Positions 16,280-61,172 of a DNA stretch of 64,000 bases are shown here, one piece after another (the first letter of the stretch is position 1; every line of letters starts with the position of its first letter). The position numbers and the translations under genes are program-made. The notes beneath the pieces were generated by a model. The model made no database searches and was not told where the DNA came from. It was given only the letters and a program-made list of their open reading frames with translations. The DNA lies in contig JAFEAY010000003.1 in assembly GCA_018266175.1 (NCBI GenBank), forward strand, positions 168,642 to 232,641, given 5' to 3'. The stretch is from Candidatus Babelota bacterium (GTDB lineage Bacteria; Babelota; Babeliae; Babelales; RVW-14).

Positions 16280-16378
16280 GTCATCCTCGCGAAGGCGGGG
16301 ATCAGGATTAAAAGTTTCCTTATAAAACAAGGAGATATAACGGATCCCCGACTCGTCCTGCGGACTCTCGAGGATGAC
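16280..16378. repeat. GC-rich palindromic element (GGATCCC...GGATGAC family) upstream of mutS
   Basis: Terminal inverted repeats GTCATCCTCG (16280-16289) and CGAGGATGAC (16369-16378), with inner ggcggggatc / gatccccg. The right half is shared with the element at 45173-45271. Confidence 0.65.
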
Positions 16379-16454
16379 AAACCCTATTTAAGTCAATTTA
16401 TTTCTAGCAATAAACAAAGGTCACAACTTCGATTAATCTAAAAATTCAGGTCCC

Positions 16455-19127
16455 ATGGAAAAAACAGTACCGGAAAAATTAACCCCGCTCATGCAGCAAT
16501 ACTTCGACATAAAACAGCAGTTCACCGATACTCTCTTGTTCTTTCAAGTAGGTGATTTTTACGAGCTTTTTTTTGATGATGCAAAAATTGCTTCCGCATT
16601 TCTTGCGATCACTTTGACCAAGCGGGGCAAAAATAACGGCGCTGATATTCCGCTGTGTGGTGTTCCTATTCATGCACTTGATCATTATCTGGTGAAATTG
16701 ATCAGAGGTGGTTTTAAGGTTGCACTGTGCGATCAACTCACCAAACCGCAACCGGGCACCGTTGTGCAACGGGGGATAACACGTGTTTTTACTCCTGGAA
16801 CACTCATCGATGCCGGCATGCTTGACGATAAATCAGCATCGTACCTGCTCACTTTTTATCCACTACCCGACCGCTGGGGCATTTTATTTACCGAACTGTT
16901 AACCGCACAACTTTTTGCAACGACAGTCCCTGCCGATTCATACCGACACATCGAAGCGGAACTTATCCGCTTTTTTCCCGATGAAATCATTTTGCCCAAG
17001 CTCAAAAAAATTGAACATTTCGATACCTACTTCAAAAAAATGGGCTACTGTACCAGCTTTATTGATGCACACATTCAAGCAAACGATGTGCAGAGTGAGG
17101 AAGAACCAAAAAGCTCAGAATCTCAAGCATGGATTGAGCAGCAATTCCCTGCGCAAGCGGTCCGCACAATTCACCAGCAACCGGCGTTTGAACAATCACT
17201 CACCACGCTCTATCACTATTTAAAAAGAAATCAAAGCGCTTCGCTTGAACAGTTCAAATCGATTCAATTTTATGAACCGGATGATTACCTAATTCTTGAT
17301 TTGGCAACACAAAAAAATCTTGAAATCATTAATAACACACAAGATGGCGGAAGAAAGAACACACTCTTTTCAGTACTTGATCACGCAAAAACTCCGATGG
17401 GTTCTCGAACGATTAAAAAATGGCTCTCACGCCCACTGGTGCAAAAAACAAGTATTATTCAACGACAAGAGGTGGTTAAAGAGCTTGTCTCAAATTTTGA
17501 ACTCACAAGAAAGCTTGATGATAATCTATCAAACATTGCTGATATCGAGCGCATTATTGGCAGAATTGCACTCACGCGTGCCACCCTTCACGACTACAGC
17601 GCGCTCAAAAACTCACTATCACTCATGCCTAAAATTAAGCAGCTCCTGAGCAAATTGGCGCATGTTCCGCTTGCGCAAGCAATCGCCGAAAAAATTGCTG
17701 ACTTTACACCGCTGGTACAGTTGCTTGAATTAAGCGCTAATGATGACACAGCGTTGAGTTACACCATTAAGCCTGGGTTTGACTTAGAGCTTGATCGACT
17801 TCGGGGCTTGTCGACCAATGGTCATGAAGCAATTTTAGCGCTGGAACAGCAAGAACGAATACGTACTGGAATTTCAAGTTTAAAAATTGGTTACACACAT
17901 CAAACCGGTTATTACATAGAAATTACCAATCCGAACCTGGACAAAGTTCCTGCAGACTTCATGGCCCAACAAACTATGGTTGGACGCAAGCGTTTTATCT
18001 CTCAACAGCTCAAAGCACTTGAAGTTGAAATTTTGCAAGCCACTGCACAAATCGAACAACTTGAAGCCACCATATTTGCACGCGTTAAATTAGAAGTTGC
18101 GCACTATCTTGCTCCGCTTCGCCATGCAGCACAAAGCATTGCCTACCTTGATGGGCTTTTTGGTTTTGCAGCTGCAGCACACCACAATCGTTATATCACA
18201 CCGGAGTTTAATGACCGACAAGAGATTATAATTTCAGCTGGTCGACATCCCGTTGTTGAAGAAAGCTTAGGTCATCTTTTTGTCCCCAATAACACCAACT
18301 TGACTATCGATGAATCACTTTGGGTCATCACTGGTCCAAATATGGGCGGTAAATCAACGTATCTGCGCCAAGTGGGCTTAATTTGTATCATGGCACAATG
18401 TGGAAGCCTTGTTCCTGCCCAAGCTGCAAGCTTACCAATCCTTGACCGAATTTTTACACGCATTGGGTCAGGTGATAATGTTGCTCAGGGGAAAAGTACC
18501 TTCCTCGTTGAGATGGAAGAAACAGCGGTTATTTGCACGCAAGCAACATCAAAAAGCTTGGTGATTCTAGACGAAGTTGGACGCGGCACCAGTACCTTTG
18601 ATGGCATTGCACTGGCTCAAGCAATTATCGAACACATCTTTACTCAGATTACAGCAAAGTGTCTTTTTGCAACGCATTATCACGAGCTCACTGAACTTGC
18701 GGCAATGCATCCGGGCATTAAAAATTACCACTTGGCCAGTACCAAAAAAGGAGACCAGTTATTATTTTTGCATAAAATTGAACCGGGAGTTGCACCCGGA
18801 AGTTTTGGACTTGATGTTGCCAAGCTTGCGGGACTGCCGCATTCAATCACTCAGCGAGCAAAAACCATTTTGCATCAACTCCAAGCTACAAGCGAAGCTC
18901 ACCAAAAACCTACGCAACAATCATTTTTGTATCACGCTGCACATACAACCTCGATAGATTCTGATGAAGAACAGCTCCATCAAACAATCAGAAATCTTGA
19001 ACTCCAAGTCACACAACAGCAAGAGCTCCTTGCTCAACTCACCAATCTTGATATCAATAATTTGACTCCTCGACAGGCGCTCGAATTTATCTGGGATCTT
19101 AAAGAGAAATTGAACGAAAAAGATTAA
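16455..19127 (+). CDS. mutS: DNA mismatch repair protein MutS
   Basis: N-terminal TPLMQQYFDIKQQF...FFQVGDFYELFFDDA, Walker A ITGPNMGGKSTYLRQ, STFLVEMEE, DEVGRGTSTFDG and FATHYHELT. Confidence 0.95.
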   Translation: MEKTVPEKLTPLMQQYFDIKQQFTDTLLFFQVGDFYELFFDDAKIASAFLAITLTKRGKNNGADIPLCGVPIHALDHYLVKLIRGGFKVALCDQLTKPQPGTVVQRGITRVFTPGTLIDAGMLDDKSASYLLTFYPLPDRWGILFTELLTAQLFATTVPADSYRHIEAELIRFFPDEIILPKLKKIEHFDTYFKKMGYCTSFIDAHIQANDVQSEEEPKSSESQAWIEQQFPAQAVRTIHQQPAFEQSLTTLYHYLKRNQSASLEQFKSIQFYEPDDYLILDLATQKNLEIINNTQDGGRKNTLFSVLDHAKTPMGSRTIKKWLSRPLVQKTSIIQRQEVVKELVSNFELTRKLDDNLSNIADIERIIGRIALTRATLHDYSALKNSLSLMPKIKQLLSKLAHVPLAQAIAEKIADFTPLVQLLELSANDDTALSYTIKPGFDLELDRLRGLSTNGHEAILALEQQERIRTGISSLKIGYTHQTGYYIEITNPNLDKVPADFMAQQTMVGRKRFISQQLKALEVEILQATAQIEQLEATIFARVKLEVAHYLAPLRHAAQSIAYLDGLFGFAAAAHHNRYITPEFNDRQEIIISAGRHPVVEESLGHLFVPNNTNLTIDESLWVITGPNMGGKSTYLRQVGLICIMAQCGSLVPAQAASLPILDRIFTRIGSGDNVAQGKSTFLVEMEETAVICTQATSKSLVILDEVGRGTSTFDGIALAQAIIEHIFTQITAKCLFATHYHELTELAAMHPGIKNYHLASTKKGDQLLFLHKIEPGVAPGSFGLDVAKLAGLPHSITQRAKTILHQLQATSEAHQKPTQQSFLYHAAHTTSIDSDEEQLHQTIRNLELQVTQQQELLAQLTNLDINNLTPRQALEFIWDLKEKLNEKD

Positions 19128-19131
19128 GCTC

Positions 19132-19159
19132 TTGATCGGGTATATCCGTCTGGTATGAT
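19132..19159 (+). promoter_or_regulatory. Sigma70-type promoter upstream of the PP2C gene
   Basis: TTGATC (19132-19137), 16-nt spacer, TATGAT (19154-19159). Confidence 0.45.
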
Positions 19160-19249
19160 AAAATATGCCTTATGATTGATAATTGACTGAGAAGACGCAA
19201 AAAATTCACGTTACCGTGACCGTTAATACTCAAATTAGAAGAGAGCAGT

Positions 19250-20257
19250 ATGATCAACCAATCATTATTTTTTATTGCATTTTTTGCTATCACATTTTCT
19301 ACATCAACGATAACACCTCTTTCACTTGTTCACGGCTCATGGAGTGCACAAGGTGAACGAACGAGCCAGCAAGACAGATATGTAAGTAATACGTTTGGTA
19401 TTGAGGATAAACAAGTCTATTGCTTTGGTATTTTCGATGGCCATGGCCAGGTTCGCATGGGACACCTTGTTGCTCAGTATGCACAAAATCACCTACACAA
19501 TGAACTTGCACCAAAAGTAGTGTCACTCTTCCAATCAAACAACTTACACCGCGTACCAGATCTCATTCAAGAATCATTTCAAGAATTTGATAAAGATTTA
19601 AAAAACAAGAATCCTAATTTTACTTTTAATAGCGGAACAACCGCAACAACGATAATGATCATCGAAGATCACTGTATTGTTGCAAACGTTGGTGACTCGC
19701 AAGCGTATCTTCAGGTATCCAATTTAATGGCGCCACAAGTCCTCACAGAAAATCATGTTCTTAATGAAAATTTTTGCAAACAATTTGAGAAATCTGATAC
19801 TACTTATTTAGAAAAAAGAGTTACTACAGAAATCTTTTACCAAGACTTTCCATTTAATCAAGAAAATTGCATCCGAAGAATCCATCACAATACTTACATT
19901 GTTGCTCAATACGATAATGAGAGAGGAGCCTATGAAAGCTTATTAAATTTGTCACGAACTCTTGGCGACTCACTCTTTTTCCCGCACGTAACGGCTCTTC
20001 CATTCGTACAAAACTTCTCTTTAACGCCAGAGCACCAGTTTATTATCATTGCAAGTGATGGCTTGTGGGATAATATGACCGGCAAAGCAGCAACAAATTT
20101 TGTACTAGCCTACCTTCAAGAAAATGATATGAATATACAGACAATAACACCTGACCAGGCACAAACCATAGCACAAGCACTTGTAGACGCATCACTTACA
20201 ATCAGCAAGCACGATAATACAACTGCAACCATTATCTTTTTTCAACACACTCCATAA
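19250..20257 (+). CDS. PP2C-family Ser/Thr protein phosphatase with N-terminal signal peptide
   Basis: PP2C motifs in order: RTSQQDRY, FGIFDGHG, SGTTAT, VANVGDSQAY, IIASDGLWD, DNTTATIIF. Hydrophobic N-terminus MINQSLFFIAFFAITFSTS. Confidence 0.8.
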   Translation: MINQSLFFIAFFAITFSTSTITPLSLVHGSWSAQGERTSQQDRYVSNTFGIEDKQVYCFGIFDGHGQVRMGHLVAQYAQNHLHNELAPKVVSLFQSNNLHRVPDLIQESFQEFDKDLKNKNPNFTFNSGTTATTIMIIEDHCIVANVGDSQAYLQVSNLMAPQVLTENHVLNENFCKQFEKSDTTYLEKRVTTEIFYQDFPFNQENCIRRIHHNTYIVAQYDNERGAYESLLNLSRTLGDSLFFPHVTALPFVQNFSLTPEHQFIIIASDGLWDNMTGKAATNFVLAYLQENDMNIQTITPDQAQTIAQALVDASLTISKHDNTTATIIFFQHTP

Positions 20258-42615: not shown

Positions 42616-42691
42616 CTTGCCTGGAAAAAGGGCTTATAAAAAACAATCAAATATCATTTGAGTGAGACACGTAAATCACACGAATTCATTT

Positions 42692-42763
42692 CCCCATCTC
42701 GCAGGGGAGCTTCCAGCCTTCGCGTGAAGCTTCCCTGCGAGATGGCTGACCTGTCGCTTTAAA
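42692..42763. repeat. GC-rich palindromic element (20-bp stem) with cctgtcgctttaa module
   Basis: ccatctcgcaggggagcttc (42694-42713) pairs with gaagcttccctgcgagatgg (42726-42745) with one mismatch. The following cctgtcgctttaa recurs in the mosaic repeats at 50.2 and 59.3 kb. Confidence 0.6.
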
Positions 42764-42949
42764 TTGATAACAACACTGGTACTTTTATTTGCAACACCTT
42801 CATTGAAAACGGCTTTCCACCTTGCTTTTTATTGTGGAAGCAAAGCAGAGAAAAAAATGCTTCATGATTTACAAAAAATTTTGCTAGGATGGAAAAGCGT
42901 AAAAGTTATCGTTCATTTTCAACAAGACATCATAAAAGGGAGAAATCTT

Positions 42950-45172: not shown

Positions 45173-45271
45173 GATCCCCGACTTCAGCCGTCGCTCAAGC
45201 TATGACCGACAGGCGGCCCGCTGTGGCTCCCTGCCTCGTCGCAGCCTTGGCGTAGACGGGTCGAGGATGAC
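45173..45271. repeat. GC-rich mosaic element (GATCCCCGAC...CGAGGATGAC)
   Basis: The ends are identical to the right half of the 16.3-kb element. The interior carries the agctatg(a/g)c and ggcggcccgc modules shared with 50.3 and 59.4 kb. A separate terminator hairpin follows at about 45284-45312. Confidence 0.6.
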
Positions 45272-45378
45272 AACATAAATCATCAAAATCCTCGCCCGTG
45301 CGGGGATTTTTTTATTTATGCTATACTTGTCAGTATAAAAAAATATCGTTTCACCTCTTTCCCGAAAGAGTGCAAAAC

Positions 45379-48269: not shown

Positions 48270-48280
48270 AATGAGCAAAT

Positions 48281-49288: not shown

Positions 49289-49615
49289 TTATTTATAAAG
49301 GTGAGTCAAATCTAAAGAAATTTGATGTCCATTTCGCTCGATAAGAACCTTACACCCAAGGCCATTTAAAACTTTAAAGAAACTTCCCATATTGAAATCT
49401 TTGTTAATTCCTGAGCGCATGCCTTGGATAACCGTTGGTGATACCCCTGCAAGCTTTGCAAGCCTCCTTACGGAGATTTTATCTTCTTCCATCGCAGCAA
49501 GAATCATTTCTGACAACAAAAGATCTTTATATTCTTCGTCAAAAGCTTTTTTTTCTTTTGGACTTAATGATTCAATAAATGTATCGATCGTTGATTTTAT
49601 CTTTTTATTAGCCAT
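49289..49615 (-). CDS. XRE-family HTH antitoxin (HigA-like), paralogue 2
   Basis: Start at the ATG at 49615 (GGAGAC upstream). ISVRRLAKLAGVSPTVIQGMRSG. Collinear with 42229-42561. Confidence 0.7.
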   Translation of the reverse strand: MANKKIKSTIDTFIESLSPKEKKAFDEEYKDLLLSEMILAAMEEDKISVRRLAKLAGVSPTVIQGMRSGINKDFNMGSFFKVLNGLGCKVLIERNGHQISLDLTHLYK

Positions 49616-49628
49616 AAGAGTCTCCAAT

Positions 49629-49991: not shown

Positions 49992-50162
49992 CGGCTCCTC
50001 AAGCAAACAGATGTGGGATGTTTAGAATCATAAATAAACGTACCACGATCATAATACATTGTCCATTAATTTAAGATAATCGCACAGCAAGACGACTCGG
50101 CTGCTTGACTCATAATACCGTCCTCTTCACCACCAATTCACCCTAACTCCTTTACGATCATC

Positions 50163-50226
50163 AACCATTTTTGCAAAATACTTGATCTGCCTGCTCTGTT
50201 TGCATACGCTCAAAAGTAAACTTACA
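50163..50226. repeat. Cassette-bracketing repeat R3 (core 50163-50206)
   Basis: AACCATTTTTGCAAAATACTTGATCTGCCTGCTCTGTTTGCATAcgctcaaaagtaaacttaca, with weaker similarity extending upstream to about 50126. Confidence 0.85.
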
Positions 50227-50235
50227 GGTTAGGCA

Positions 50236-50559
50236 ATTCTATCTTGTTGCGATGCAAAGCAATCTTGATGAACCTAAAGCGACAGGATGGCCTCTTGACT
50301 CGCTGTAGCCTCCTGGCTCGCCATAGCTTGAAAAGCGACGGCGGCTGGCAGAGGCGGTTGGGCGCCCGGCGAACTCAGCCAATCCGTCGCTAGAGCTTTG
50401 CGATAGAGAGTAATACCGCAATCGGTAAACTTTGGTGGGGTTTCCAAGGGGCTGGCCGCCCGACTTCGCGTAAAGCTACGACGGGCTGGCAGCCCAGATG
50501 GCGGGCATGTCCGCCGTAGTTCGTAGAACGTAGGAGGATGGTAGGTACCGCGTACCTAC
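50236..50559. repeat. GC-rich mosaic repeat, arm A (inverted relative to arm B at 59076-59510)
   Basis: Block 50499-50559 is the reverse complement of 59076-59136 with 2 mismatches in 61 nt. Further collinear blocks pair 50427-50449 with 59188-59210, 50369-50400 with 59236-59267, and 50267-50290 with 59281-59304. The track ORFs here (50239-50632) look like artefacts of GC richness. Confidence 0.8.
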
Positions 50560-50644
50560 AAAAAGATAAGCTATAAAAAATAATATTCTCTCCAAGCAAA
50601 ATGAATACCATCGATAAGTTATAAACGAACAATGTTATTTTGGT

Positions 50645-50674
50645 GGATCCCGGATCGGAGTCCGGGATGACATC
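50645..50674. repeat. Small palindromic element GGATCCC-hairpin-GGGATGACATC
   Basis: ggatcccggatcggagtccgggatgacatc has the same ends as the copy at 59754-59783 (opposite strand). Confidence 0.6.
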
Positions 50675-50820
50675 GTGGGATATTAAAAACCAGTTTTAAT
50701 TCGTAGCTCTGGTATTCATAAATGAAGTAGAAATGGTACTGATCGATAAAATGAGAAAAATAATAATTTAAAAAACATTGCACAGATACCTAAGCCGAAT
50801 AATCTTAAAAAGGAGACCGT

Positions 50821-52296
50821 ATGATGAAAACAAACCTCATTGCGCTACGCCGCATAACCTTCCTAGCCCTGGCACTGACCGCCAGCACGGCACTGCTGGC
50901 CGACGGCGACGCCAGCAACAAAACCTTCTTGTCACCACGCTCGCCAAGCGTGAACATGGCGCACAAGTACACCACATGGGCTGACCATGTGTATGGCAAG
51001 CGCTGCGGCAAGGCACAGACCAGCTTTCAGCTGACTGGATTCTTTTCGGAATCGGAAAAGGGGAAAGATTTAGGGAACTATTTTGGTATTGGGAATAAGA
51101 GCAACAGCTTTACGGTTGGCCCAACAACTGCGCCTGGTGAAATCAATACAGATTTCTTAATGCATGATTTTGCAGGAATTGGAAATGCTTCTGGCACTAT
51201 CACCCTTGCTCCACGCCAAGAAGCCTGGGGCGCACGCTTAGACTTCTTTCAAGACCTTCATTTCCGATTTGGAAAATTCTTTATTGCAGCCACTCTCCCT
51301 ATCGTTCATGTACAACAAAACATGCGCATCCAAACAACCGATGGTTTGCCAACTCGAGCTATTGGCGGCACACAATTTACCCTTGAAGATTTTTTCAGTG
51401 GAAAATTTGAAAACGCTGATCCTGCTGATGCTGAAAATAAACAATCAGCACTGACTAAAGCAAAAATTGGTGGCAGCCATTCAGAAACAGGCGTTGCTGA
51501 CATCGAACTTGAACTTGGCTGGAAAGCACTTGAAAGCAAAAAGTGCCATATTTTCTTAAACCTTGGCTTCACCATTCCAACCAGCAACAAGGCTGATGGC
51601 GAATTTTTGTTTGAGCCGATCTATGGCAACGGCGACCACTTCGCCTTTGGTGGCGGCATTGATGCTGGCGTAACCTTGTGGTGCAAAGATAAGAACAAAG
51701 TCCGCTTGCTTCTTGCTGGAGACTACCGTTTCTTATTTGACAATACACAAAAGCGTACGCTGGGAGTTATGGACGATGTCGGCGTACCACAGAGATTTGG
51801 TCATTATGCTGCAGGCTATAAACTTCTCCAGGATCCAGGAACCCCACTTTTTCCACTAGCAAATGTATTAACACAAAATGTTGGCGTTGAACCGGGTAGT
51901 CAAATTGATGCACTTGCAGCACTTTCGTTCAACTTCTGCCGCTTAACTTTTGATGCTGGTTATAACCTCTTCTGGAGAGATAAAGAATCAGTCAAAGTAA
52001 AAGCTTGGGAAGATGGAGTTTACTACCAAGCTAGCATTCTTCGCGATGCAACTGATGCTTTTACTCTTGTTAATGCAGGTCTTGACACTCCTATCAATCG
52101 TAAAAATTTAAACATCGCGGCAGCAGCAACACCATCACTCCTTTCTCATAAAATATTTGGTAGCTTGGCTTACTCAGGCAAAATTAAAAATCAGTATCCA
52201 TGCAGCTTTGGTGTAGGCGGATCGTATGAGTTTGCTGATACCAACGCGGACCTTGAAAATTGGAGCGCTTGGATTAAAGCAATTCTCTCATTCTAA
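50821..52296 (+). CDS. Outer-membrane beta-barrel protein, paralogue 3
   Basis: Signal peptide ITFLALALTASTALLA, NKTFLSPRSPSVNMAHKY, YGNGDHFAFGGGIDAG, AGYNLFWRD, C-terminal IKAILSF. AGGAGA precedes the ATG. Confidence 0.65.
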   Translation: MMKTNLIALRRITFLALALTASTALLADGDASNKTFLSPRSPSVNMAHKYTTWADHVYGKRCGKAQTSFQLTGFFSESEKGKDLGNYFGIGNKSNSFTVGPTTAPGEINTDFLMHDFAGIGNASGTITLAPRQEAWGARLDFFQDLHFRFGKFFIAATLPIVHVQQNMRIQTTDGLPTRAIGGTQFTLEDFFSGKFENADPADAENKQSALTKAKIGGSHSETGVADIELELGWKALESKKCHIFLNLGFTIPTSNKADGEFLFEPIYGNGDHFAFGGGIDAGVTLWCKDKNKVRLLLAGDYRFLFDNTQKRTLGVMDDVGVPQRFGHYAAGYKLLQDPGTPLFPLANVLTQNVGVEPGSQIDALAALSFNFCRLTFDAGYNLFWRDKESVKVKAWEDGVYYQASILRDATDAFTLVNAGLDTPINRKNLNIAAAATPSLLSHKIFGSLAYSGKIKNQYPCSFGVGGSYEFADTNADLENWSAWIKAILSF

Positions 52297-52387
52297 AAAA
52301 TCAGCAACCCCACTCTTCCTGAGTGTTTTTGCGCAATGAAATGAAGCAAAAAAGTATCGAATGATTTTGAGTAATAAAAATCTATAG

Positions 52388-52416
52388 AGGCGCTCAATTG
52401 ATGAGCGCCTTTTTTC
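52388..52416 (+). terminator. Rho-independent terminator
   Basis: aggcgctca-attg-atgagcgcct followed by tttttc. Confidence 0.75.
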
Positions 52417-52446
52417 ATGCGATCTGATCAGTCATACAAATCAAGA

Positions 52447-52498
52447 TTATTTTCAAAATTAAAAATTATTGACTTATATTTCAAATAGAGAATATCAT
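52447..52498 (+). promoter_or_regulatory. Conserved AT-rich promoter motif (copy 4) for the 1414-aa protein gene
   Basis: attattttcaaaattaaaaattaTTGACTtatatttcaaatagagaaTATCAT: -35 at 52469-52474, 18-nt spacer, -10 at 52493-52498. Confidence 0.5.
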
Positions 52499-52553
52499 TA
52501 GGTTAGGATATAAAATTTTTCTAAAGATACTATTTATATTGAAAGGGATTTCC

Positions 52554-55500
52554 ATGATCAAGAAACAGGCCCTCGTGTGGGGGATAGCTATTATCCTAAC
52601 AGCGATTGGATCGTTCCATTTATATGGAATGATGAAAACCCCTGAAGGGACCCAAGAGGCACAAGAAATAAATAGAATCGTTAAAAGTATTAATGACGCT
52701 CCAACATCAGTAGCTAAGATTAAGGCTCTGCCACTTTATAAAAGATATGAAGAGCTTATCACTCATCCTCACCTTGCAGGTAAGCCATTGGGAAATACGG
52801 TTATACCTAAGCTTAAAACAAAAGTTAAAGATACTTTCACAGCAGCAAGTCCAGCCGATTTTACTAGTTCTGATGCAAGCGTTCAGGCAAATGTAACTGA
52901 ATATACAGTCAAAGCTGCCGATGCAGATATTAAAGCCGCCGCTGGAGCTATCGCTGCTTCAACCGACGCAGAAAAAATTGATCGCATGCTTGCTCAAGTC
53001 ACTCCACTTGTTAAACCAATTGAAGATGCAATCGTCGCCGCTGCAGCCTTCAAAGCAAGTGATTATGATCCTCGCTTACTTGCTTTAAAAGCAGGAAAAG
53101 ATGTTGCTTTCAAATTACCATTTGCTGATTCTTTAGAAAAATTGGCAGGCGCGAACAACTATCCAGATAAACTCGCTCAAATCAAAGCTGATATAGCAGC
53201 AATTAAAGGAAATCAGCCAGTTAATCTTAAAGACCCACTCACAACTCCTGGCGGAGTTAAACCAACCGTCAACGGAGGAGCTCTTGCAGAGGTCAAAGAT
53301 GGCCCAAGTGCCACTGCATTTTACACAGCAGTAAAAGCACTTTCAGACGATATTCTTCCAAAGCTTAACCTTGATACCATTAAACAAGCTTTTGCTGATG
53401 TATCCAGGGCTCCTGGAAAAACGTTTACTTTTGCTGACGGTTCTAAAAAGGTAGCAGGTGTTGGGGCTACTAGAGTTGAAACTCGAATGCATAAGTACAG
53501 CCTGCGTAACAAAATCCTCGCTGCCCTTGGCATTACAACCTACAACGACGCTGATGCTAACTTTGCGAACCGCTTTACAGCTACCAAGCCAGACGGCGTT
53601 GCAGCAACACTGTTAGCTATTAAAGCTATTGTTGATCCAGCGCGTACAGCATGGATAGATGTAGATGGAGTAAATGGAACTCATGGAAAAGATGGTTGCT
53701 TCACATCCCTTTCTGCGGCTCAAAAAAATGACGTCAACTATAAGTCTTTCGTAAATGATCCAGCAGGAAGCAACGTAGATTACCCTCGCTTCACATCAAT
53801 AGGCTCAACAGAATATACAAGTTTCAAAAATTTATGGGATGAATTTAATGCTATCTTTACTCTAGCACACGGTGCTGTAAGAGGTGCAGCAAAGAGTCTT
53901 CCAACAGCAACGAAAGCTGCAAATCCAAACGATCGCATGAAAAAAGACCTCTCTGCTCGCCTTGCAGCAGCTGAAGCACTTGCTGCAAAACTTGGAGTTG
54001 ATCACACAACTGCCAATTCAATGAAAAAACTATTGCATGATGTAACGAATCTCAAGGCACCAACGCTCGCAAAAATTGCTATTGCTGGAACAGATTATTT
54101 CTTTACCGACAATAAAACTAATGGTGGAAACAAATCTTGGAAAGCATTTGCAACCGCTGCTGACGATCTGGCAAAAACTCTTAAAACACCTGATCAATTA
54201 GTTGCTGAAGCCAAAGCGTTTCTTTCAGCATTCCTTGGCAAAAATGCTGCCTTGACCGCTGATGAACCATCAGTACAACTTACCATTTCAGGCGCAAACA
54301 AATCATTGTTTCAAGCGCTGTCTGAATTTAAAACTGATATTGCAAAACGAGCAAAGCATACAGACCTCGATACCGATGCAACACACAGCGCTAACTACAA
54401 ACTTATTAAGAAAGTACTGGATCCAAAAGAGTTCAAATCAGTTGATGGTACTGAGCTTGGTAGCTTCTTTGATACAGCAAATGATTTCGCCTCATTACCA
54501 AAAGCAACATTATCAATGGCAACTGGAACCGGTGGCGCAGAATCGGATGATAATAAAAAGAAATTCTTTGAAGCTGCTCAACAGTTTGTAGCTGAGTTAA
54601 AGAAACTTCAACAGGACCTAGGCATAGCTGCAGCAGCTAATGCCGCAGATCGTGGTACAGCATTCGAAGCACAGGCTACTGCAATGAAAGCAGTTGCAGG
54701 ATTCTTACCAAATGAAATGCTTGCAATGGGTAAAGACATTCTTGGCTTCTTTGTCGGACAAAAGAAGGCCCTGACAAAAGCTATCAATGCTGGCAAGGAT
54801 GGAAGAAACCTCAATTTCAAGGACAAAACTGGTGGTGGTAAGAAGTATGAAAATCAAACCTGGTTTGAAGCTCTTACTTGGCTGAAGAAGCGCTTAGACG
54901 CACGCGGTATCGTCGCCAATGATGCTGGAACTGATGCAGAAAAGATGCTTTATTCTATCAACGAGCTTTTTGATCCAGCGCAATCTACAGGTACTGTTTC
55001 TGGTACAACGGAGAGTCTTGCAGACTTCAATATAACAGCTAATTTCCCTGCAACAGTTACGAATGCTGCTATTAATCCTAAAGCTGCAAGTGATGATGAT
55101 AAGCATCTCTTCTACGAAGCAGCAAAAGCATTCAGAACTAAACTAAATGCAATTTGTAATAAGTTCTCAGATCCTATAACTGATACAACCGGCAACAAAT
55201 TTGAGGATAATTCACGTGCATTGCTCGATGCGCCAACATTAATGACGCAAACCAAAGTGGCACCAGGCATTACGGCACCAGGATTCGATCCTGCTACTGT
55301 CGCTACCTTCCTTGATGCAATGACCATCCAAGACGTATGGAGAATTGCAACCGGTGCGTACCGCATGATCCGTGACGTGGCGTTCCGCGTACATCCATCA
55401 CAACTTCGGGATGCAACTGGAGCTAACTTAGGCGTAATTCCAGCAGCTTACACCGATGCGGTTGGACTCCTCAATGCCTACCACACCTTTGATGCGCTCA

Positions 55501-56798
55501 CAGCAGTGAATTTAGATAATGCGCTGTACGGAAAAGTTAAAACTGCATGGAATACCGGCGCTAACCTTGCGGACAAACAAACTGCACTCGGCACAATTCT
55601 GACGGATGCCAAAACACTTGCTGGTCGATTGGTAACCTTTATGCGCGATGGCCGTATACAGGCACTTGCAGCGCTGTCTACTGCAAATGGTGCTTTCGCA
55701 TTTCATTCAACTAATGCTGCTATCAACACTGCAATTGAAGCTGTGGTTGGAACGGTCAACGATAACAACGCAGCAAATACCATCTACGGCAAATTGAAGG
55801 CAGCAACAGAGACGTATGATCAGCTGCATGACCTTGCAAGCAAGATTCATCCAACACATGGAGTTCCTCATGATCAAGCAGATCTCTGCGCGGCACTTAA
55901 TAGCTACCGCACAGAAATGATGGAGTTCATTGCTGATCCGTTGCACTGGAATGCGCGTAATAAACTTGCAACTGTAGCTGATGCTAATCACTCAAGGGAT
56001 AATATTATTGAACCAACGAAAGTCAGACTTGCAACCTGGGCAACAACCGGATCAAAGCTTGCTGATCTTACTAAGCAAGGCACCCCATCAGCTAAACTCA
56101 CCGCAGATCAACTCAAGCTTCAAGAACTCCTTGGTGCACCCGGTGGTACTATTTATGGTCTCTGGTTCTGGGCAAATGATATCGCTGAGCAATTGCCACC
56201 AAAAGCAATTGTTGGCACGCCAAAACCAACCGATGCTGTCTACAACACATACGCTGCTGCAATTGATAATGCAAGGGCCTTGTTAAATAACGCTCTGGCC
56301 GGCCAAGCAAGTATTCAGAACAAAGTGGCGGTGATAAAAACAAAAGCTGAAGCTGATGCATTGCTTACAAGCTTGAATGATGCGGTTGTTGCGCTTGAAG
56401 GTGCATTGTTTCAAGTGCTGACCCATCAGGTAGCACCAATTGAAAAAACGATTGCATTCTTAACACCTGTGGTTTCAGGTATTAAGTTTACTGCTACACT
56501 TGATAATGCAAGCACCAAAGAGTTCACGCTATTTAGTGCTGCTCAATTAGGTGCGAAAAAAACAGAAACAATTGCAACACTGAAAGCAACTCTTCCATCA
56601 TCAACTTTACAAATCTTATTTACGGGGCTTGGCGGAGCAACGATTCTACCTAAGAATGTGAGTACAAAGAGAGCTCAATTTATTATCGACGCACAGGCGG
56701 CATTAGAGTTAAATAGAGCTAATATTAAGGCTGCAGGATTTACCGATAGCAATGTTAATGACTTAAAAGCAGCGATAGGTGAAAAGTATAGAAAATAG
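52554..56798 (+). CDS. Very large (1414 aa) Ala-rich exported protein, unknown function
   Basis: Start at the ATG at 52554 (GAAAGGGA upstream; the track uses TTG at 52539). Signal or anchor segment ALVWGIAIILTAIGSFHLYG. Low Cys and high Ala/Lys/Thr content. An internal recurring motif SDD(N/D)K..F(F/Y)EAA..F...L occurs at least twice, about 170 aa apart. Confidence 0.7.
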   Translation: MIKKQALVWGIAIILTAIGSFHLYGMMKTPEGTQEAQEINRIVKSINDAPTSVAKIKALPLYKRYEELITHPHLAGKPLGNTVIPKLKTKVKDTFTAASPADFTSSDASVQANVTEYTVKAADADIKAAAGAIAASTDAEKIDRMLAQVTPLVKPIEDAIVAAAAFKASDYDPRLLALKAGKDVAFKLPFADSLEKLAGANNYPDKLAQIKADIAAIKGNQPVNLKDPLTTPGGVKPTVNGGALAEVKDGPSATAFYTAVKALSDDILPKLNLDTIKQAFADVSRAPGKTFTFADGSKKVAGVGATRVETRMHKYSLRNKILAALGITTYNDADANFANRFTATKPDGVAATLLAIKAIVDPARTAWIDVDGVNGTHGKDGCFTSLSAAQKNDVNYKSFVNDPAGSNVDYPRFTSIGSTEYTSFKNLWDEFNAIFTLAHGAVRGAAKSLPTATKAANPNDRMKKDLSARLAAAEALAAKLGVDHTTANSMKKLLHDVTNLKAPTLAKIAIAGTDYFFTDNKTNGGNKSWKAFATAADDLAKTLKTPDQLVAEAKAFLSAFLGKNAALTADEPSVQLTISGANKSLFQALSEFKTDIAKRAKHTDLDTDATHSANYKLIKKVLDPKEFKSVDGTELGSFFDTANDFASLPKATLSMATGTGGAESDDNKKKFFEAAQQFVAELKKLQQDLGIAAAANAADRGTAFEAQATAMKAVAGFLPNEMLAMGKDILGFFVGQKKALTKAINAGKDGRNLNFKDKTGGGKKYENQTWFEALTWLKKRLDARGIVANDAGTDAEKMLYSINELFDPAQSTGTVSGTTESLADFNITANFPATVTNAAINPKAASDDDKHLFYEAAKAFRTKLNAICNKFSDPITDTTGNKFEDNSRALLDAPTLMTQTKVAPGITAPGFDPATVATFLDAMTIQDVWRIATGAYRMIRDVAFRVHPSQLRDATGANLGVIPAAYTDAVGLLNAYHTFDALTAVNLDNALYGKVKTAWNTGANLADKQTALGTILTDAKTLAGRLVTFMRDGRIQALAALSTANGAFAFHSTNAAINTAIEAVVGTVNDNNAANTIYGKLKAATETYDQLHDLASKIHPTHGVPHDQADLCAALNSYRTEMMEFIADPLHWNARNKLATVADANHSRDNIIEPTKVRLATWATTGSKLADLTKQGTPSAKLTADQLKLQELLGAPGGTIYGLWFWANDIAEQLPPKAIVGTPKPTDAVYNTYAAAIDNARALLNNALAGQASIQNKVAVIKTKAEADALLTSLNDAVVALEGALFQVLTHQVAPIEKTIAFLTPVVSGIKFTATLDNASTKEFTLFSAAQLGAKKTETIATLKATLPSSTLQILFTGLGGATILPKNVSTKRAQFIIDAQAALELNRANIKAAGFTDSNVNDLKAAIGEKYRK

Positions 56799-56836
56799 TA
56801 AATAACACAATTGTGTAAGTTAATTTTTAACATATT

Positions 56837-57190
56837 ATGCTTAAGGAGAATACCGTGTTGAATATGTGCAGAAAAATATTAATACTACTATTGCTTTCCC
56901 AGGGGTTATACACTACTAAGTCTTTTGCGGCTACAAAAGCTGAACTACAAGGAGCTGTTGAATCACTTATAAAGGAAATTGACACATTTGTAACAGATAA
57001 AATAGACCCAATAGTTGTGGCTGGAAATGCTCTTGTAGCTGAACAGACTACCGGCACTCTAATTGATGGATCAGGCGATGTATCCGCGACAGGAATTGGT
57101 TATGTACATGAAATAGCCGACGGGCTAACGGGAATTGAATTTAGAGAATTAGATCAAACTGATATTGATAAAATTTATATCCCGCAATAG
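56837..57190 (+). CDS. Small exported hypothetical protein (about 110 aa)
   Basis: Signal peptide ILILLLLSQGLYTTKSFA. AAGGAG at 56843-56848 favours a GTG at 56855 or ATG at 56864 start, so the start is uncertain. Confidence 0.5.
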   Translation: MLKENTVLNMCRKILILLLLSQGLYTTKSFAATKAELQGAVESLIKEIDTFVTDKIDPIVVAGNALVAEQTTGTLIDGSGDVSATGIGYVHEIADGLTGIEFRELDQTDIDKIYIPQ

Positions 57191-57216
57191 GTTGATGCTG
57201 CAAATAATTAAGACTG

Positions 57217-57252
57217 AAAAAGGGCTTCGCTTTTTACGGCGAAGCCTTTTTC
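57217..57252. terminator. Bidirectional hairpin terminator between convergent genes
   Basis: aaaaagggcttcgc-tttttac-ggcgaagccttttt. Confidence 0.7.
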
Positions 57253-57260
57253 CATTACTT

Positions 57261-57312
57261 GGATCCCAACCTTGCCACGCCATAGCTTTATGCCACGGCG
57301 GGCCCCCCAAAC
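57261..57312. repeat. Truncated GC-rich mosaic element (GGATCCCAA... with gccatagc module)
   Basis: ggatcccaaccttgccacgccatagctttatgccacggcgggcc shares its GGATCCCAA start with 59783-59754 and the agctatggcg module (reverse complement) with 50.3 and 59.4 kb. Confidence 0.5.
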
Positions 57313-57355
57313 TTCATATCTGAGCGAGTCGGTCAGTCTTTAATATCTTATTATA

Positions 57356-58831
57356 TTAAACTAAGTTTCTGAACTTATTAATAAACGTGTATGTCTGAAA
57401 CACATTCTGAATATCTTGGCAATCGTCTTGACGAGCTTGATAAACAGCGTATGATCGCAAACCAACTAGAGAAAGATGTGCAAGCAAATCTTGACGCGTA
57501 TTGTTCTGAGGCAAGCTGTTCAAGTAAGCTTGAGCTGCATCTTTGGTAGCAAAACATGCTTTAACTTTCTCACCAAGTGCAACATACACCGCATGAAGGT
57601 TTGCTCTTTGGGCTTCAGCTGCAAAATCATCAGCGGTAGCTACTCTATGTAACTCTTCAGCTTGTACACGCAATGCTTGAAAATACGCAATAACTGCATC
57701 CACATTGCCACCATCAGCAGCAACATCAGGAGCAACTAAGCCATGAAGTGCACGGTTGATGTCATTAAACGCGCTGTTTGCATCTTCTACAAACAGACCT
57801 GCGCCCTTTTTACCTGAAAAAGCCCAGTTCCATCCAGCTTTAACACCGTTCCAGGTAGCCTTAACAGGAGCAACTGTTGCGTAGTAAGCAGGGGTAACGG
57901 TTGCATGGTACGCAACATTACCAACAGACTTTGCAGCCTTGCTGATCAAGCCAGGTTTTGCGAGGCGCTCTACTTCTTCTTGGTTTGCAGCATGAAAGCG
58001 AGCCGTGAGGTCTGCTTTTGCTTGAAGGATTTGAGCATCAAAAGCATCAACATCAACATCAGCAAGACGAGCTTTGCGTGCTGCACGGGCAACGATACGA
58101 GCTTCTGCCAAGGTATACATGTGAGCTTTATTTGCTTGAGCGGCTGTCATTGTTGGGATAGCATTAACTATAGTTATTGTAAAATTAGCAATATAGTCTT
58201 TGTAGTCTTGTTCGGCTATATCAGAACGACATAAATCGACAATCAAGATATCTTTAAGGGATTGGCCAATTTTGAGTTCATCACGTTGCTTAAGCAATTC
58301 AGCTTTTGCAGCATTATCAAGACCATTACATCTTTTTGCAATGTTCAAAAGAGTGATCATGTTTTTCTTGTTTACATACGCTTTAACAGCGTTGATGTAG
58401 TTAACAACTGAGTCATGAGCAACATCTTTTCGAAGTGTTTTAAGAAGAACAAGCTTTGCTTCAAATGCAGCTGCTGCATCTTCAACTTCAATAATGTCAG
58501 CTGTTTTATAGCCAGCGGCTACAGCTTTTTTGTTATGTTCGGTTGCAGTAGTTGAAGCTGCAATCAACTCAGTTTCTTTAGCAGCAATCGCTTGTCTTAC
58601 TGAAGAACGTTTGAAACCGGCTTCTTGATCAATCAACGAAGTTCTAAGCGTATTTGCAAGGACTTGCTTGAGAGCAGCCTTGAAATCGGTAACTTTTTGA
58701 CCGATGTTCTCAGCGGTAATGTTTTGGATAGCTGTAACTGGTTGAACAACAGCGACGGTGTCTGCATGCAATGAAAGCATGCCACAAAACGTAAGTGCAG
58801 CGGCACCTAAAGATCGTCTTACAAAATTCAT
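57356..58831 (-). CDS. Ala-rich exported protein (491 aa), unknown function
   Basis: Start at the ATG at 58831 (GGAGG upstream). Signal peptide SLGAAALTFCGMLSLHA. The composition is helical and Ala-rich, like the 1414-aa neighbour. Confidence 0.65.
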   Translation of the reverse strand: MNFVRRSLGAAALTFCGMLSLHADTVAVVQPVTAIQNITAENIGQKVTDFKAALKQVLANTLRTSLIDQEAGFKRSSVRQAIAAKETELIAASTTATEHNKKAVAAGYKTADIIEVEDAAAAFEAKLVLLKTLRKDVAHDSVVNYINAVKAYVNKKNMITLLNIAKRCNGLDNAAKAELLKQRDELKIGQSLKDILIVDLCRSDIAEQDYKDYIANFTITIVNAIPTMTAAQANKAHMYTLAEARIVARAARKARLADVDVDAFDAQILQAKADLTARFHAANQEEVERLAKPGLISKAAKSVGNVAYHATVTPAYYATVAPVKATWNGVKAGWNWAFSGKKGAGLFVEDANSAFNDINRALHGLVAPDVAADGGNVDAVIAYFQALRVQAEELHRVATADDFAAEAQRANLHAVYVALGEKVKACFATKDAAQAYLNSLPQNNTRQDLLAHLSLVGLRSYAVYQARQDDCQDIQNVFQTYTFINKFRNLV

Positions 58832-58904
58832 AATAACCTCCATACGAATAAGAAATAGACGAAAAACATTTTCTACGAGTATTTTATATTATTCACATTG
58901 GTGA

Positions 58905-58935
58905 GTAATACTTCTGTTACTATAACAAAAGTAAA
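58905..58935 (-). promoter_or_regulatory. Possible copy of the conserved promoter motif upstream of the 491-aa protein gene
   Basis: The minus strand reads gaaTTTACTtttgttatagtaacagaagTATTAC. The TTTAC(A/T)TTTG(A/T) core resembles copies 1-3, but the spacer is 19 nt. Confidence 0.35.
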
Positions 58936-59075
58936 TTCGGGCTGCAAACGGGGGGTGGTTTACAGGGGTGGCACCCCTGTAGGCTAGAAGGATGGTATTT
59001 GATGGATGGTTGTTATCCTAAACTCAAAGCTCAACCTGCTTTAGATTATGGTTTTTATCTAAACTCCCGTGTTTC

Positions 59076-59510
59076 GTAGGTACGCGGTACCTACCATCCT
59101 CCTACGTTCTACGAACTATGGCGGACAGGCCCGCCAAGGTACATCCCGCTCATGCTGAGTGCCCAGCTTGCTGGGTGTATCGAAGCACCTTGGAAACCCC
59201 ACCAAAATTTGTCCAACTCTTAATTACTCTTTTTTCGAAGCCTTAGCAACGGGTTGGCTAAGTTCGCAAGGCGCTCAAGGCCACCCTGTTGCTTTAAGTT
59301 CACCAAAATTACTCTGTACCTGTTATAAATTCCGCCTGAGCTCTAACAAGCCGGAGCCTGTCCGCTTAAGTTCACTACGACTAAGCTCCCGACGTCGCCC
59401 TCTGGGCTATGGCGAGGCAGGCAGGATAAACTCTGTTCAAAGAACGAAGGCGGGAGCAAGGTTGAAGAGATTCAGCTGTGCGGCGCTCTTCGACTAAGCC
59501 TATACCTGCA
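59076..59510. repeat. GC-rich mosaic repeat, arm B
   Basis: See arm A. It starts with the hairpin gtaggtac-gcg-gtacctac and contains extra copies of modules (cctgtccgcttaagttcac, gggctatggcgagg). The track ORF 59159-59497 is considered non-coding. Confidence 0.8.
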
Positions 59511-59602
59511 AGTCGCACAGATTATTGACCCGTGTTACCAAATTTGATAACATTCTATTAGGTGTAAGCCATATTTTTTTAAAATCTCAAACAGGTGTTT
59601 TA

Positions 59603-60047
59603 ATGAAAAAACATACCTCTAAAAAAGTTTTAACCGTGTTTTTCTATCAAGATAAACCGGGAAAAGCACCTGCTTTAGAATTTATATAACGCGAACTCGA
59701 TAATTCAAATTCTTTGTATTGACCCACTGGCTCAGTTGATTATCGATTTTCTAGGATGTCATCCCAAACTTGATTTGGGATCCAGCTGAATACGTTACAA
59801 CAAAGTTTTTTATACGATGGGATTTGATAAATATTATTGAAGCTTTTTTGATGGATTCCATCGATAATTTACGAATGAACAGGGCTTGTGGGAATTAAAA
59901 ACCAATTTGAGTAATAGAATTGCTCGATTTATTTTTGTTGTCAGAGATAATCAGATAGCAGTATTGCATGGCTTTATTAAAAAAACTCAGAAAACTCCGC
60001 GACAAGAAATTGAACTTGCACTCAGTAGATTAAAGAAGCTGGAATAA
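59603..60047 (+). pseudogene. Gp49/RelE-like toxin gene disrupted by repeat insertion and frameshifts
   Basis: ATG at 59603 gives MKKHTSKKVLTVFFYQDKPGKAPALEFI then TAA. The 3' part in another frame reads ...GLWELKTNLSNRIARFIFVVRDNQIAVLHGFIKKTQKTPRQEIELALSRLKKLE* (stop at 60045-60047). Repeat-derived DNA lies between them (59686-59790). Confidence 0.65.
59754..59783. repeat. Small palindromic element (GGATCCC-hairpin-GGGATGACATCC, minus orientation) inside the dead toxin gene
   Basis: Forward ggatgtcatcccaaacttgatttgggatcc; the reverse complement matches the 50645 copy at both ends. Confidence 0.6.
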
Positions 60048-60064
60048 AGAGAAGGATTTTAATC

Positions 60065-60355
60065 ATGAAAAAATTCAATAAAAAGCATAGAGGGCAAACA
60101 CTTGACAGCTTTCTTAAAGAAGAAGGAATTCTTGAGAAAACAGAAGCCGTTGCTCTTAAACGGATCATAGCATATCAATTGCTTGCTATTCTTGAAAATG
60201 AAAGCATCACTCAGACCGAGCTTGCTCAGAGAATGAAAACAAGTAAAGCTGCAATTAATAGACTACTCAACCCAGAAAACCCCTCAATCACTCTGTCTAC
60301 TCTTTTAAAAGTTGCACATGCTCTTGGTAAGAATCTTCAGATCTCTATTGCATAA
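60065..60355 (+). CDS. XRE-family HTH antitoxin partnered with the decayed toxin
   Basis: LDSFLKEEGILEKTEAVALKRIIAYQL...ITQTELAQRMKTSKAAINRLLNPENPSITLSTLLKVAHALGKNLQISI. This is the typical architecture of antitoxins downstream of Gp49-type toxins. Confidence 0.7.
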   Translation: MKKFNKKHRGQTLDSFLKEEGILEKTEAVALKRIIAYQLLAILENESITQTELAQRMKTSKAAINRLLNPENPSITLSTLLKVAHALGKNLQISIA

Positions 60356-60432
60356 CATTCAGCAGAGGTAAAGCAAAATGGATAAAAGACCTGATTATGA
60401 AACATTTAAGCTCAGTTAACAGAGAATACCCT

Positions 60433-60741
60433 ATGAAAACAAAAAAGCTTAATGATTACATTCAAACTCGTCTTACAAAAAAAGAGATTGCAGCCATCGA
60501 TAAACAAGCGCGGCTTGAAGTGCAAGCTCTTAAATCATTACAAAATGATATTACGTGCGCAATGAATGATTATATGAAGGAAAAAAACATTGGATTTAAT
60601 GAGCTTGTGCAGCGATTGAATGTAAGCCCTGCACATATAGCCAAAATCAAAAAAGGTGAAGCAAACTTAACGCTATCAAGCATCGCACGTATTTTTGCAC
60701 TACTTGAGCAAGAACCTCATTTAGTATTTAACAAAAAATAG
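60433..60741 (+). CDS. Second HTH (XRE-like) protein
   Basis: HTH GFNELVQRLNVSPAHIAKIKKGEANLTLSSIARIF. A 13-codon ORF (MDKRPDYETFKLS*, 60379-60420) just upstream may be the severed original N-terminus, so the start is uncertain. Confidence 0.55.
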   Translation: MKTKKLNDYIQTRLTKKEIAAIDKQARLEVQALKSLQNDITCAMNDYMKEKNIGFNELVQRLNVSPAHIAKIKKGEANLTLSSIARIFALLEQEPHLVFNKK

Positions 60742-61172
60742 TTAAAACTATGAATCAAAGACCAGAACAATACTCAGCAAGCGGACAGGTTGCTCCCCTA
60801 TAACCCCACATGAAGGGGGGCTTGCGGCAGAACCTGCCTGCCGCGCACCAGAAAAGCAATTTCTCTATCACAATATCGTAGATTGCCGATCTGATAACGC
60901 TATTGACAGAGCCTACTATGAAATCAAGACTGAAGCACTCGGAAGTCAAAAACTTCAGTGTTATTCCGAATCTGAGAAGACAGAGTCGATTACCACATTT
61001 TATGTCTAAAGGATAACACTCCTTATTCAAGCCACCTCAGCAATTCCTGATTTTTGTTTAAAAATCGGGAATTGCACTCCGTAAATTAGTATTAAAATAT
61101 GGACTTACACTCCGTAAATTACTACAATTATAAGGATCTACTATGAATAATTTGATTTTTAGGAGAATTTCT

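Follow-up and report, generated by a model that had tools for sequence, protein, structure and literature searches.

GC-rich hairpin modules and their intergenic mosaics in a Candidatus Babelota genome

A 64-kb stretch of a Candidatus Babelota genome (contig JAFEAY010000003.1, positions 168,642 to 232,641; hereafter the window) carries GC-rich elements at nine loci, here called A to I, which had been predicted from the sequence to form one family of mosaic palindromic repeats. All nine loci are present, with G+C contents of 0.46–0.63 against ~41% across the window, and the elements are real, modular and mobile. As predicted, they are non-coding repeats resembling repetitive extragenic palindromes (REPs) and miniature inverted-repeat transposable elements (MITEs), and they lie in intergenic DNA beside genes for outer-membrane proteins (OMPs), toxin-antitoxin modules and accessory genes. 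They are not a single family with common ends: at least three families can be told apart, namely oriented hairpins of the Ssn-related motif (SRM) type, a backbone shared by elements D and G, and an element seen at B and I, with cassettes in common.

The window encodes housekeeping functions (thrS, cmk, mutS, murC-like, ftsK and trpS/tyrS-type genes), eukaryote-like proteins (RING, leucine-rich repeat (LRR) and PP2C proteins), toxin-antitoxin pairs and PD-(D/E)XK genes; no tRNA genes were found in it. Three paralogous OMP-like proteins of ~470–500 amino acids (40151-41665, 43753-45159 and 50821-52296; paralogs 1 to 3) have aromatic C-terminal residues and no Pfam match. Related paralogs occur throughout Dependentiae, often in several copies per locus (75 Dependentiae/Babeliales loci retrieved), and the three ~490-residue proteins probably represent a phylum-specific OMP family. 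Their homologues, like the relatives of the window MutS, bear the names candidate division TM6 or Dependentiae. Divergence among the 26 OMPs that we aligned was too high for locus finding.

Comparisons were made with 1.17 Mb of other Dependentiae DNA, in loci (numbered with the prefix L) that were all retrieved around OMP genes. Close relatives comprise L130, a JGI contig of the same species with 98.6–99.2% nucleotide identity to the window; L131, a relative with 92% MutS identity; and L135 and L136, two JGI strains that are 99.95% identical to the window over 39290-58982 (19.7 kb), elements B, C, D, E and F included. The 94-kb JGI contig Ga0558126_01779 (metagenome 3300056626) also belongs to the species, which is present in five SRA runs and two JGI samples. 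Further away are L008 (76% OMP identity), L055 (a GTDB genome), L108 (the TM6 genome UASB340) and L064, a distant Dependentiae genome with an OMP identity of 37%.

Oriented hairpins in the window and in other genomes

One oriented hairpin recurs, (C/T)GTCAT-CC(C/T)-variable stem-loop-stem-G(G/A)GGAT-C(C)AG, and was seen at five loci: two within 16279-16381, and the others at 45173-45273, 50643-50674 and 59755-59785. The window has four occurrences of the pattern GATCCC-N(6-36)-GGATGAC, where 100 shuffles lead one to expect 0.00; a fifth, long copy (45173-45271) has a 78-nt interior, and five of the seven GGATGAC words of the window fall inside elements. The ends GGATCCC and GGATGAC, originally assigned to the whole set, are borne by A (on two inverted hairpins), C, E and H; F has a half-site, and B, D, G and I lack them.

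The original prediction knew of no described equivalent, but the core hairpin matches a published motif. In Neisseria, the NTS repeat, CGTCATTCCCGCGMAVGCGGGAATCYRG, encloses dRS3, ATTCCC-N8-GGGAAT, and a degenerate SRM has been defined across phyla (PMC11893778). The SRM expression, HGTCWYN(0-2)YYVSBRHN(0-5)WNVSBRGN(0-2)RNCYNB, applies to a hairpin of 20-50 nt with oriented, non-palindromic flanks; searches allowing one or two mismatches performed no better than shuffles and hence were not used. The exact match in the window is hairpin E (50643..50674, minus strand; TGTCATCCCGGACTCCGATCCGGGATCCAC), which fits the degenerate motif over 50643-50672 of the minus strand (1 match vs. 0.12 expected) and is 94% identical to a copy in L062. 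Hairpin A1 (16279..16306, plus strand; CGTCATCCTCGCGAAGGCGGGGATCAGG) has one mismatch to the expression, agrees with the Neisseria NTS consensus at 24 of 28 positions, and is 96% identical to an array unit in L067. Its partner A2 (16343..16381, minus strand; TGTCATCCTCGA...TCGGGGATCC) is inverted relative to A1 and has a longer stem. Hairpin H (59755..59785, plus strand; GATGTCATCCCAAACTTGATTTGGGATCCAG) lies downstream of a truncated Gp49-like toxin open reading frame (ORF), is present in strain L134, and is 86% identical to copies in L066, L076 and L108 that carry compensatory stem changes.

The motif is over-represented in the other Dependentiae loci: the SRM pattern matches 22 times, a 9-fold excess over the block-shuffle mean of 2.45, and 21 of the matches are clear hairpins; a structural scan found 40 GTCN-stem-TC hairpins (35 with GTCA) against 2-13 in shuffles. 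When 21 distinct copies were compared, the flanks GTCA and TC were invariant or nearly so. The form closest to Neisseria is TGTCATTCCCGCGAAGGCGGGAATCCAG, carried by L008 and L055 and identical to NTS at 27 of 28 positions; the exact dRS3 form, ATTCCC-N8-GGGAAT, was seen only in these two relatives, the window copies having the form ATCCC(C)-N-(G)GGGAT. L067 combines tandem hairpin-spacer arrays, like those of the mosaic elements found between genes in Neisseria (NIMEs), with gene-less inverted pairs. Runs of N (masked or gap) in this metagenome-assembled genome (MAG), at 1575-1640 and 8019-8118, fall exactly within the arrays. True GGATCCC-stem-loop-stem-GGGATGACATC hairpins also account for ~14 of 35 pattern matches among the IMG/VR contigs L010-L044, which are unrelated and mostly GC-rich, and therefore the motif family extends far beyond Dependentiae; longer flanks (atctcgggatGGATCCCGGCC...) are common to some of these copies.

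In the Neisseria work, SsnA is a 94-residue GIY-YIG protein (catalytic residues Y6, Y17 and E64) that cuts single-stranded DNA adjacent to the hairpin, and ssn genes are often bracketed by repeats in an NTS-ssnA-NTS architecture (PMC11893778); strand-specific cutting upstream of the hairpin is a defining trait of the system. A comparable unit is found in L108. An intact, Ssn-like single-domain ORF of 114 residues at 17286-17630, located by tblastn with generic GIY-YIG sequences that served as bait only and then verified with Pfam (GIY-YIG, PF01541, E = 4.5e-18), has Y7, Y18 and E65 at the spacing of the SsnA residues, and is flanked by an upstream hairpin and an inverted downstream hairpin, both of the SRM-type family seen in the window. 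L069 contains two decayed GIY-YIG copies, each within an inverted hairpin pair. For the SRM-type hairpins, the likeliest candidate enzyme is a GIY-YIG nuclease of the Ssn type.

Insertion, rearrangement and nesting of modules

Locus A, upstream of mutS, gives evidence of mobility. A MITE-like insertion of 219 nt (16213..16431) lies between the two copies of a 10-bp target-site duplication, ATTAAGCTAA on the left (16203..16212) and ATTAATCTAA on the right (16432..16441), which match at 9 of 10 positions. Subterminal inverted repeats, AAGTTGTGATC (16211-16221, of which 2 nt overlap the end of the left duplication) and GGTCACAACTT (16419-16429), agree with each other at 10 of 11 positions (AAGTTGTGAYC). 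In L130 and L131 the site is empty: a single ATTAATCTAA stands in the uninterrupted sequence ...TTATTAATCTAAAAAC... upstream of mutS, and positions 649-658 of L130 align to both copies of the duplication. The insertion is short and non-coding, has inverted repeats and a target duplication, and is polymorphic between genomes, as defines a MITE; no second copy of the element or of its inverted repeat was found in the window or in 132 loci, and no related insertion sequence (IS) was found. At its centre lies the inverted pair A1/A2, which may be likened to a gene-less miniature of the hairpin-ssn-hairpin unit. The adjacent mutS gene is one 890-residue ORF in the window (16455-19127) and two ORFs of 397 and 500 residues in L130 (672-3343), which is without the insertion; the split suggests a frameshifted (perhaps mutator) allele or a sequencing error.

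Elements D and G share a backbone of another kind. Element D (50262..50563, plus strand) consists of three hairpins ~258 nt upstream of OMP paralog 3: hairpin H1 (AGCGACAGGATGGCC / GGCCAATCCGTCGCT), a central block with TTTGGTGGGGTTTCCAAGG, and a terminal hairpin, GTAGGTAC-CGC-GTACCTAC. The element G backbone (59042..59300, minus strand) is a homologous, inverted copy, with 61 nt at 97% identity, the rest at ~75%, and a 65-nt indel. Alignment of D, G and the G locus of L135 shows a conserved backbone of three hairpins with variable GC-rich cassettes in or between them; the pairing of H1 (AGCGACAGGRTGGCC / GGCCAAYCCGTYGCT) is kept through two double substitutions, and the terminal hairpin is perfect. 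The indel corresponds to a 65-nt GC-rich cassette (50298..50362, plus strand), a CGCCATAGC module in the loop of D hairpin H1 that is missing from the G copies at that position. This cassette matches L064 over 53 nt at 89% identity (E = 4e-12), beside the OMP gene of that genome, and L111 over 30 nt at 87%; related copies are present in F, in C and in the G-extension cassette (59385..59435, minus strand; CGCCATAGC-type).

The G locus as a whole (58983..59512) is a strain-variable mosaic, with flanks 99.95% identical to L135 and L136 and a rearranged interior. In these strains the backbone and a cassette are each flipped, the backbone running opposite to that of the window, and a chimera joins a B-like segment (92 nt, 84%) to an I-like one (40 nt, 90%); the difference is not explained by a single inversion. 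Element D, for its part, is missing upstream of the orthologous OMP gene in L008. Searches aimed at the D/G family gave no relatives: an exact-pattern scan of GTDB genomes with the 3' module gave 0 matches, the 19-mer TTTGGTGGGGTTTCCAAGG had 10 matches in JGI metagenomes, all in unrelated contexts and consistent with chance, and blastn of G against plasmids and phages gave no match. Two other accounts were set aside. D and G are not merely duplicated upstream regions of paralogous genes: the 495-residue gene beside G does not belong with the OMP paralogs, and the sister strains carry G in flipped orientation; nor is G coding, given that its 112-residue ORF has no homologues in a protein search and the indel between D and G is non-triplet.

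The remaining elements show the same modular construction. Element C (45173..45273, minus strand), between OMP paralog 2 and an AAA-ATPase/PDDEXK gene and identical in L135 and L136, has an SRM-type hairpin base, GATCCCCGAC ... GTCGAGGATGAC, around an imperfect, GC-rich hairpin of 78 nt. Homologues of this insert lie at L108 17645-17702, within the hairpin just downstream of the GIY-YIG gene, and in L069 and L074; L060 and L111 have hairpins with inserts of the same design. The nested structure that had been predicted is thus borne out, as GC-rich inserts within hairpin loops. Element B (42642..42765), downstream of a Gp49/HTH toxin-antitoxin pair, comprises an AT-rich leader, a palindrome with a 20-bp stem (42694-42745) and a CCTGTCGCTTTAA tail; its segment 42642-42733 (92 nt) is the one copied at 84% in the L135 G locus, and its TTCCAGCCTTCGC also occurs in L108. 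Element I (60781..60820; GCGGACAGGTTGCTCCCCTATAACCCCACATGAAGGGGGG) is the 40-nt segment whose 90% copy is fused there to the B-like element. Element F (57261..57318), between convergent genes and identical in L135 and L136, has an SRM half-site, TGGATCCCAA, and after it a cassette of the form CGCCATAGCTT...ACGGCGG; it is the weakest member of the set.

Sharing of modules among these loci, also part of the original prediction, holds for the D/G homology and for matches to other genomes and strains. Within the window the rest consists mostly of 11–14-nt words and short gapped matches: 20 of the 72 pairwise, strand-specific comparisons exceeded shuffles at p<=0.02, and a score of at least 22 was reached by 9 of 35 pairs, where 60 GC-matched control sets averaged 2.3 such pairs and never had more than 7. 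Sharing within the window is real but only modestly above chance; the decisive evidence lies in the copies that recur in other genomes and strains. The palindromic character of the elements was upheld in part: the short hairpins, B and individual modules are palindromic, and the large elements, taken whole, show no unusual folding (z = -2.1, -0.8 and -1.4 vs. shuffles).

Neighbouring genes and other repeats

The eukaryote-like proteins, an LRR protein with 135-nt repeats (222-3167), a PP2C phosphatase (19250-20257) and a RING-finger protein (21670-23043), are typical effectors of an intracellular parasite. A lysine-rich ORF at 42764-43588, with 9-nt periodic repeats (AGKK/SRK units) and no Pfam match, resembles the histone H1-like nucleoid proteins of other intracellular bacteria. 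The AAA-ATPase_like + PDDEXK_9 gene that follows element C (45298-47070) is intact in the window; in L135 (12576-14268) it is broken into two ORFs, and in L136 it is 482 residues long. After it comes a PDDEXK_2 “transposase-like” gene (47186-48097). Each of the elements B, D and G/H adjoins a Gp49-type module or part of one. At 4808-6837 and 31782-34648 lie two tandem pairs of diverged paralogs that have no Pfam domains and show 75–84% nucleotide identity in patches.

Two further repeats were observed. A 69-nt repeat (48221-48289, 49117-49185 and 50158-50226; 74–94% identity) lies at the starts of short antitoxin-like ORFs within a cluster of toxin-antitoxin modules (MNT/HepT-like, Gp49/HTH), and the Logan contigs L002-L005 all start within its third copy. 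A 19-nt motif, TAACGCGAACTCGATAATT, occurs four times in the window against 0 expected, at 122-140 (+), 168-186 (-), 3207-3225 (-) and 59687-59705 (+). Its copies bracket the LRR gene, and it is conserved in distant Dependentiae genomes (L060 7809, L064 11629, L073 16465/16566 and L077 139) and in strain contig L134 (946), whose match to the window ends exactly at the motif. The motif may be a cassette-boundary, recombination or regulatory site.

Interpretation and rival explanations

Based on these observations, we propose as the probable explanation that the elements are mobile, non-coding GC-rich hairpin modules that recombine into intergenic mosaics, a Dependentiae counterpart of the NIMEs and of the bacterial interspersed mosaic elements (BIMEs) of enterobacteria. 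The SRM-type hairpins occur in three settings: solo (E and H), as an inverted, gene-less pair (A), and as a base with GC-rich modules nested in the loop (C). The modules would be recognized as single-stranded DNA hairpins by a hairpin-specific enzyme which, we infer, is encoded elsewhere in the genome, and cutting at hairpins, followed by repair, recombination or re-insertion, would let modules spread, nest, invert and be deleted. The main consequence would be local structural variation beside genes for surface proteins (OMPs), toxin-antitoxin modules and accessory functions; on the model of Neisseria SsnA, the system might also limit recombination of incoming single-stranded DNA.

Among the closest known systems is that of NTS/SRM and Ssn. 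As in that system, (i) the window hairpin is oriented, and its stem varies between unpaired flanks that are conserved (5' GTCAT, 3' TCCAG), (ii) the motif is over-represented in Dependentiae, with hairpin-GIY-YIG-hairpin units in L108 and L069, and (iii) the hairpins belong to a host-associated bacterium and cluster near OMP genes. The window consensus, however, is one base shorter per arm (ATCCC...GGGAT vs. ATTCCC...GGGAAT), several copies fail the SRM expression, long variants carry nested GC-rich loop modules, no ssn gene lies in the window, and one pair is carried by an element that has inverted repeats and has duplicated 10 bp of its target; Dependentiae are not named in the main text of PMC11893778. 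The NIMEs, which consist of dRS3 and RS elements (PMC1797815), share the alternation of GC-rich hairpins with other repeat segments, strain-variable mosaics beside surface-protein genes and, in L067, regular hairpin-spacer arrays. In NIME arrays, repeat segments of 50-150 bp separate the hairpins, and the arrays vary between strains, and strain variability is shown at A and G; the window differs in having one pair (locus A) and solos rather than long arrays, “RS-like” pieces that are GC-rich hairpin cassettes rather than lower-GC spacers, hairpins that depart from ATTCCC-N8-GGGAAT, and a D/G backbone without dRS3-type ends. Locus A resembles MITEs such as the Correia elements of Neisseria in being small (219 nt) and non-coding, with inverted repeats at its ends, a target duplication and presence or absence between strains, but was seen in a single copy, has a 10-bp duplication rather than TA, has no known parent IS and contains SRM hairpins. 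Another comparison is with Rickettsia palindromic elements (RPEs) and the GC clusters of yeast mitochondria, which are likewise nested or modular GC-rich palindromes, scattered through the AT-richer DNA of an organelle or of an intracellular organism. RPEs enter protein-coding genes in-frame; the window elements are all intergenic on the ORF map, none lying in-frame within a protein-coding gene, and have no sequence similarity to either group. This likeness is one of analogy alone.

Several points weigh against the proposed explanation. Neither the Pfam scan of window ORFs of at least ~100 residues nor motif and tblastn scans of all frames revealed an IS transposase, a Y1 transposase or a GIY-YIG gene in the 64 kb, and ~34 kb of strain contigs likewise gave no GIY-YIG/Ssn gene, relic or other transposase, so that the enzyme link is indirect. 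The SRM expression is matched exactly by E alone; A1 departs from it at one position, and H, A2 and C do not fit it despite their GTCAT...GGGATCC flanks. The enrichment estimate applies to loci around OMP genes and is not genome-wide, and although six of seven stem pairs among the 21 distinct copies vary on both sides with complementarity kept, this statistic is biased by a scanner that required pairing, its informative part being the fixed flanks versus the free stems. The D/G backbone was not found outside the species and has no SRM ends, its tie to the hairpins consisting of shared cassettes and proximity. Finally, terminal inverted repeats with a 10-bp duplication are the mark that a DDE transposase leaves and a GIY-YIG nuclease does not; a DDE transposase making 10-bp duplications is an alternative mover of locus A.

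One competing account is that the hairpins and modules are REP- or REPIN-like elements which a REP-associated tyrosine transposase (RAYT) of the IS200/IS605 Y1 family, encoded elsewhere in the genome, produces and moves. Short imperfect intergenic palindromes, inverted doublets (locus A and the L067 pairs) and clustering into extragenic mosaics are common to the window and to the REP/BIME/REPIN-RAYT systems of E. coli and Pseudomonas, for which recognition of single-stranded DNA hairpins has likewise been proposed; moreover, the tetranucleotide typical of REPs, GTAG, opens the D/G terminal hairpin and is repeated before it. GTAG is confined to that hairpin, however, the conserved flanks being GTCAT/TCCAG; the gene found between such hairpins in Dependentiae encodes a GIY-YIG protein and not a Y1 transposase; and the RAYT and IS200/IS605 transposases suggested at the outset gave no match (Y1_Tnp/RAYT) among the Pfam-scanned window ORFs. 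We regard this origin as quite improbable. A somewhat less remote but still unlikely alternative holds that the hairpins are integration targets for recombinases or IS110 elements, and the mosaics scars of repeated integration and excision. Neisseria dRS3 is a documented integration target, used by filamentous prophages (PMC1797815, PMC11893778), the GC-rich inserts in C, L108 and L060 sit exactly within hairpin loops, and the G locus acts as a recombination hot spot. A tyrosine recombinase gene is present at 25129-26070, but it resembles a housekeeping gene of the XerC/D type, with conserved synteny in the strains; the window contains no IS110-family gene or prophage, and the inserts are just 15–80 nt long and non-coding.

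Conservation of structure for a function in RNA, as mRNA-stabilizing 3' hairpins, attenuators, OMP leaders or small RNAs, would account for the position of C between a stop codon and the next gene, for D and window-G each lying ~230–260 nt upstream of a gene in equal relative orientation, and for the H1 pairing that survives two double substitutions. Against this stand the folding values, barely better than shuffles, the lack of T-tracts after the hairpins, unlike ordinary terminators in the window, and the lack of any Rfam match at gathering score in the window (around D and G, chance-level matches at E<=10 only). A leader or regulatory role is further weakened because the orientation of G is flipped in the sister strains and empty sites exist: D is missing upstream of the orthologous OMP gene in L008 and locus A from near-identical strain DNA. 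We regard such a function as having little probability. Least credible, and very improbable in our view, is the account in which GC-rich scraps of intergenic DNA, or the remains of decayed genes, resemble one another by chance. Most shared words within the window are indeed 11–14 nt long with E near 0.1–1, and the mean pairwise score equals that of GC-matched controls; but the hairpin pattern has 0 expected occurrences, matches between genomes reach E = 4e-12, locus A has an empty site, B and I have copies in the sister-strain G locus, and the ORF inside G has no protein homologues.

With these alternatives weighed, we retain the reading of mobile hairpin modules that recombine into mosaics. 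The literature that we searched held no account of such repeats in Dependentiae. The core hairpin and the mosaic organization are nevertheless of known kinds, with NTS/SRM as the match for the former and NIMEs and BIMEs as organizational analogues for the latter, and Dependentiae are a new phylum for them; what is still new is the uncharacterized D/G backbone family and the apparent loop-directed nesting. A bolder version, which we consider doubtful, is that the cassettes are autonomous-in-trans “nesting hairpins” that insert specifically into the loops of SRM hairpins and of the D/G backbone, driven by an Ssn-type nuclease: a new hairpin-in-hairpin mobile class with horizontal spread among Dependentiae (89% identity between cassettes vs. 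37% between OMPs).

With these findings the Ssn/SRM hairpin system, itself described very recently, reaches Dependentiae, protist parasites that form a poorly known phylum. They add a filled and an empty site with target duplication, and a strain-rearranged locus in otherwise 99.95% identical DNA, both missing from the Neisseria work, and they make the mobility of NTS-type repeats and their mover testable, with the L108 GIY-YIG ORF as candidate enzyme and E, H and A1 as candidate substrates. In practice, such repeats disrupt short-read assemblies and create spurious ORFs in Dependentiae MAGs. If the nesting-hairpin version were true, surface-protein loci would be remodelled by this route in an obligate intracellular parasite.

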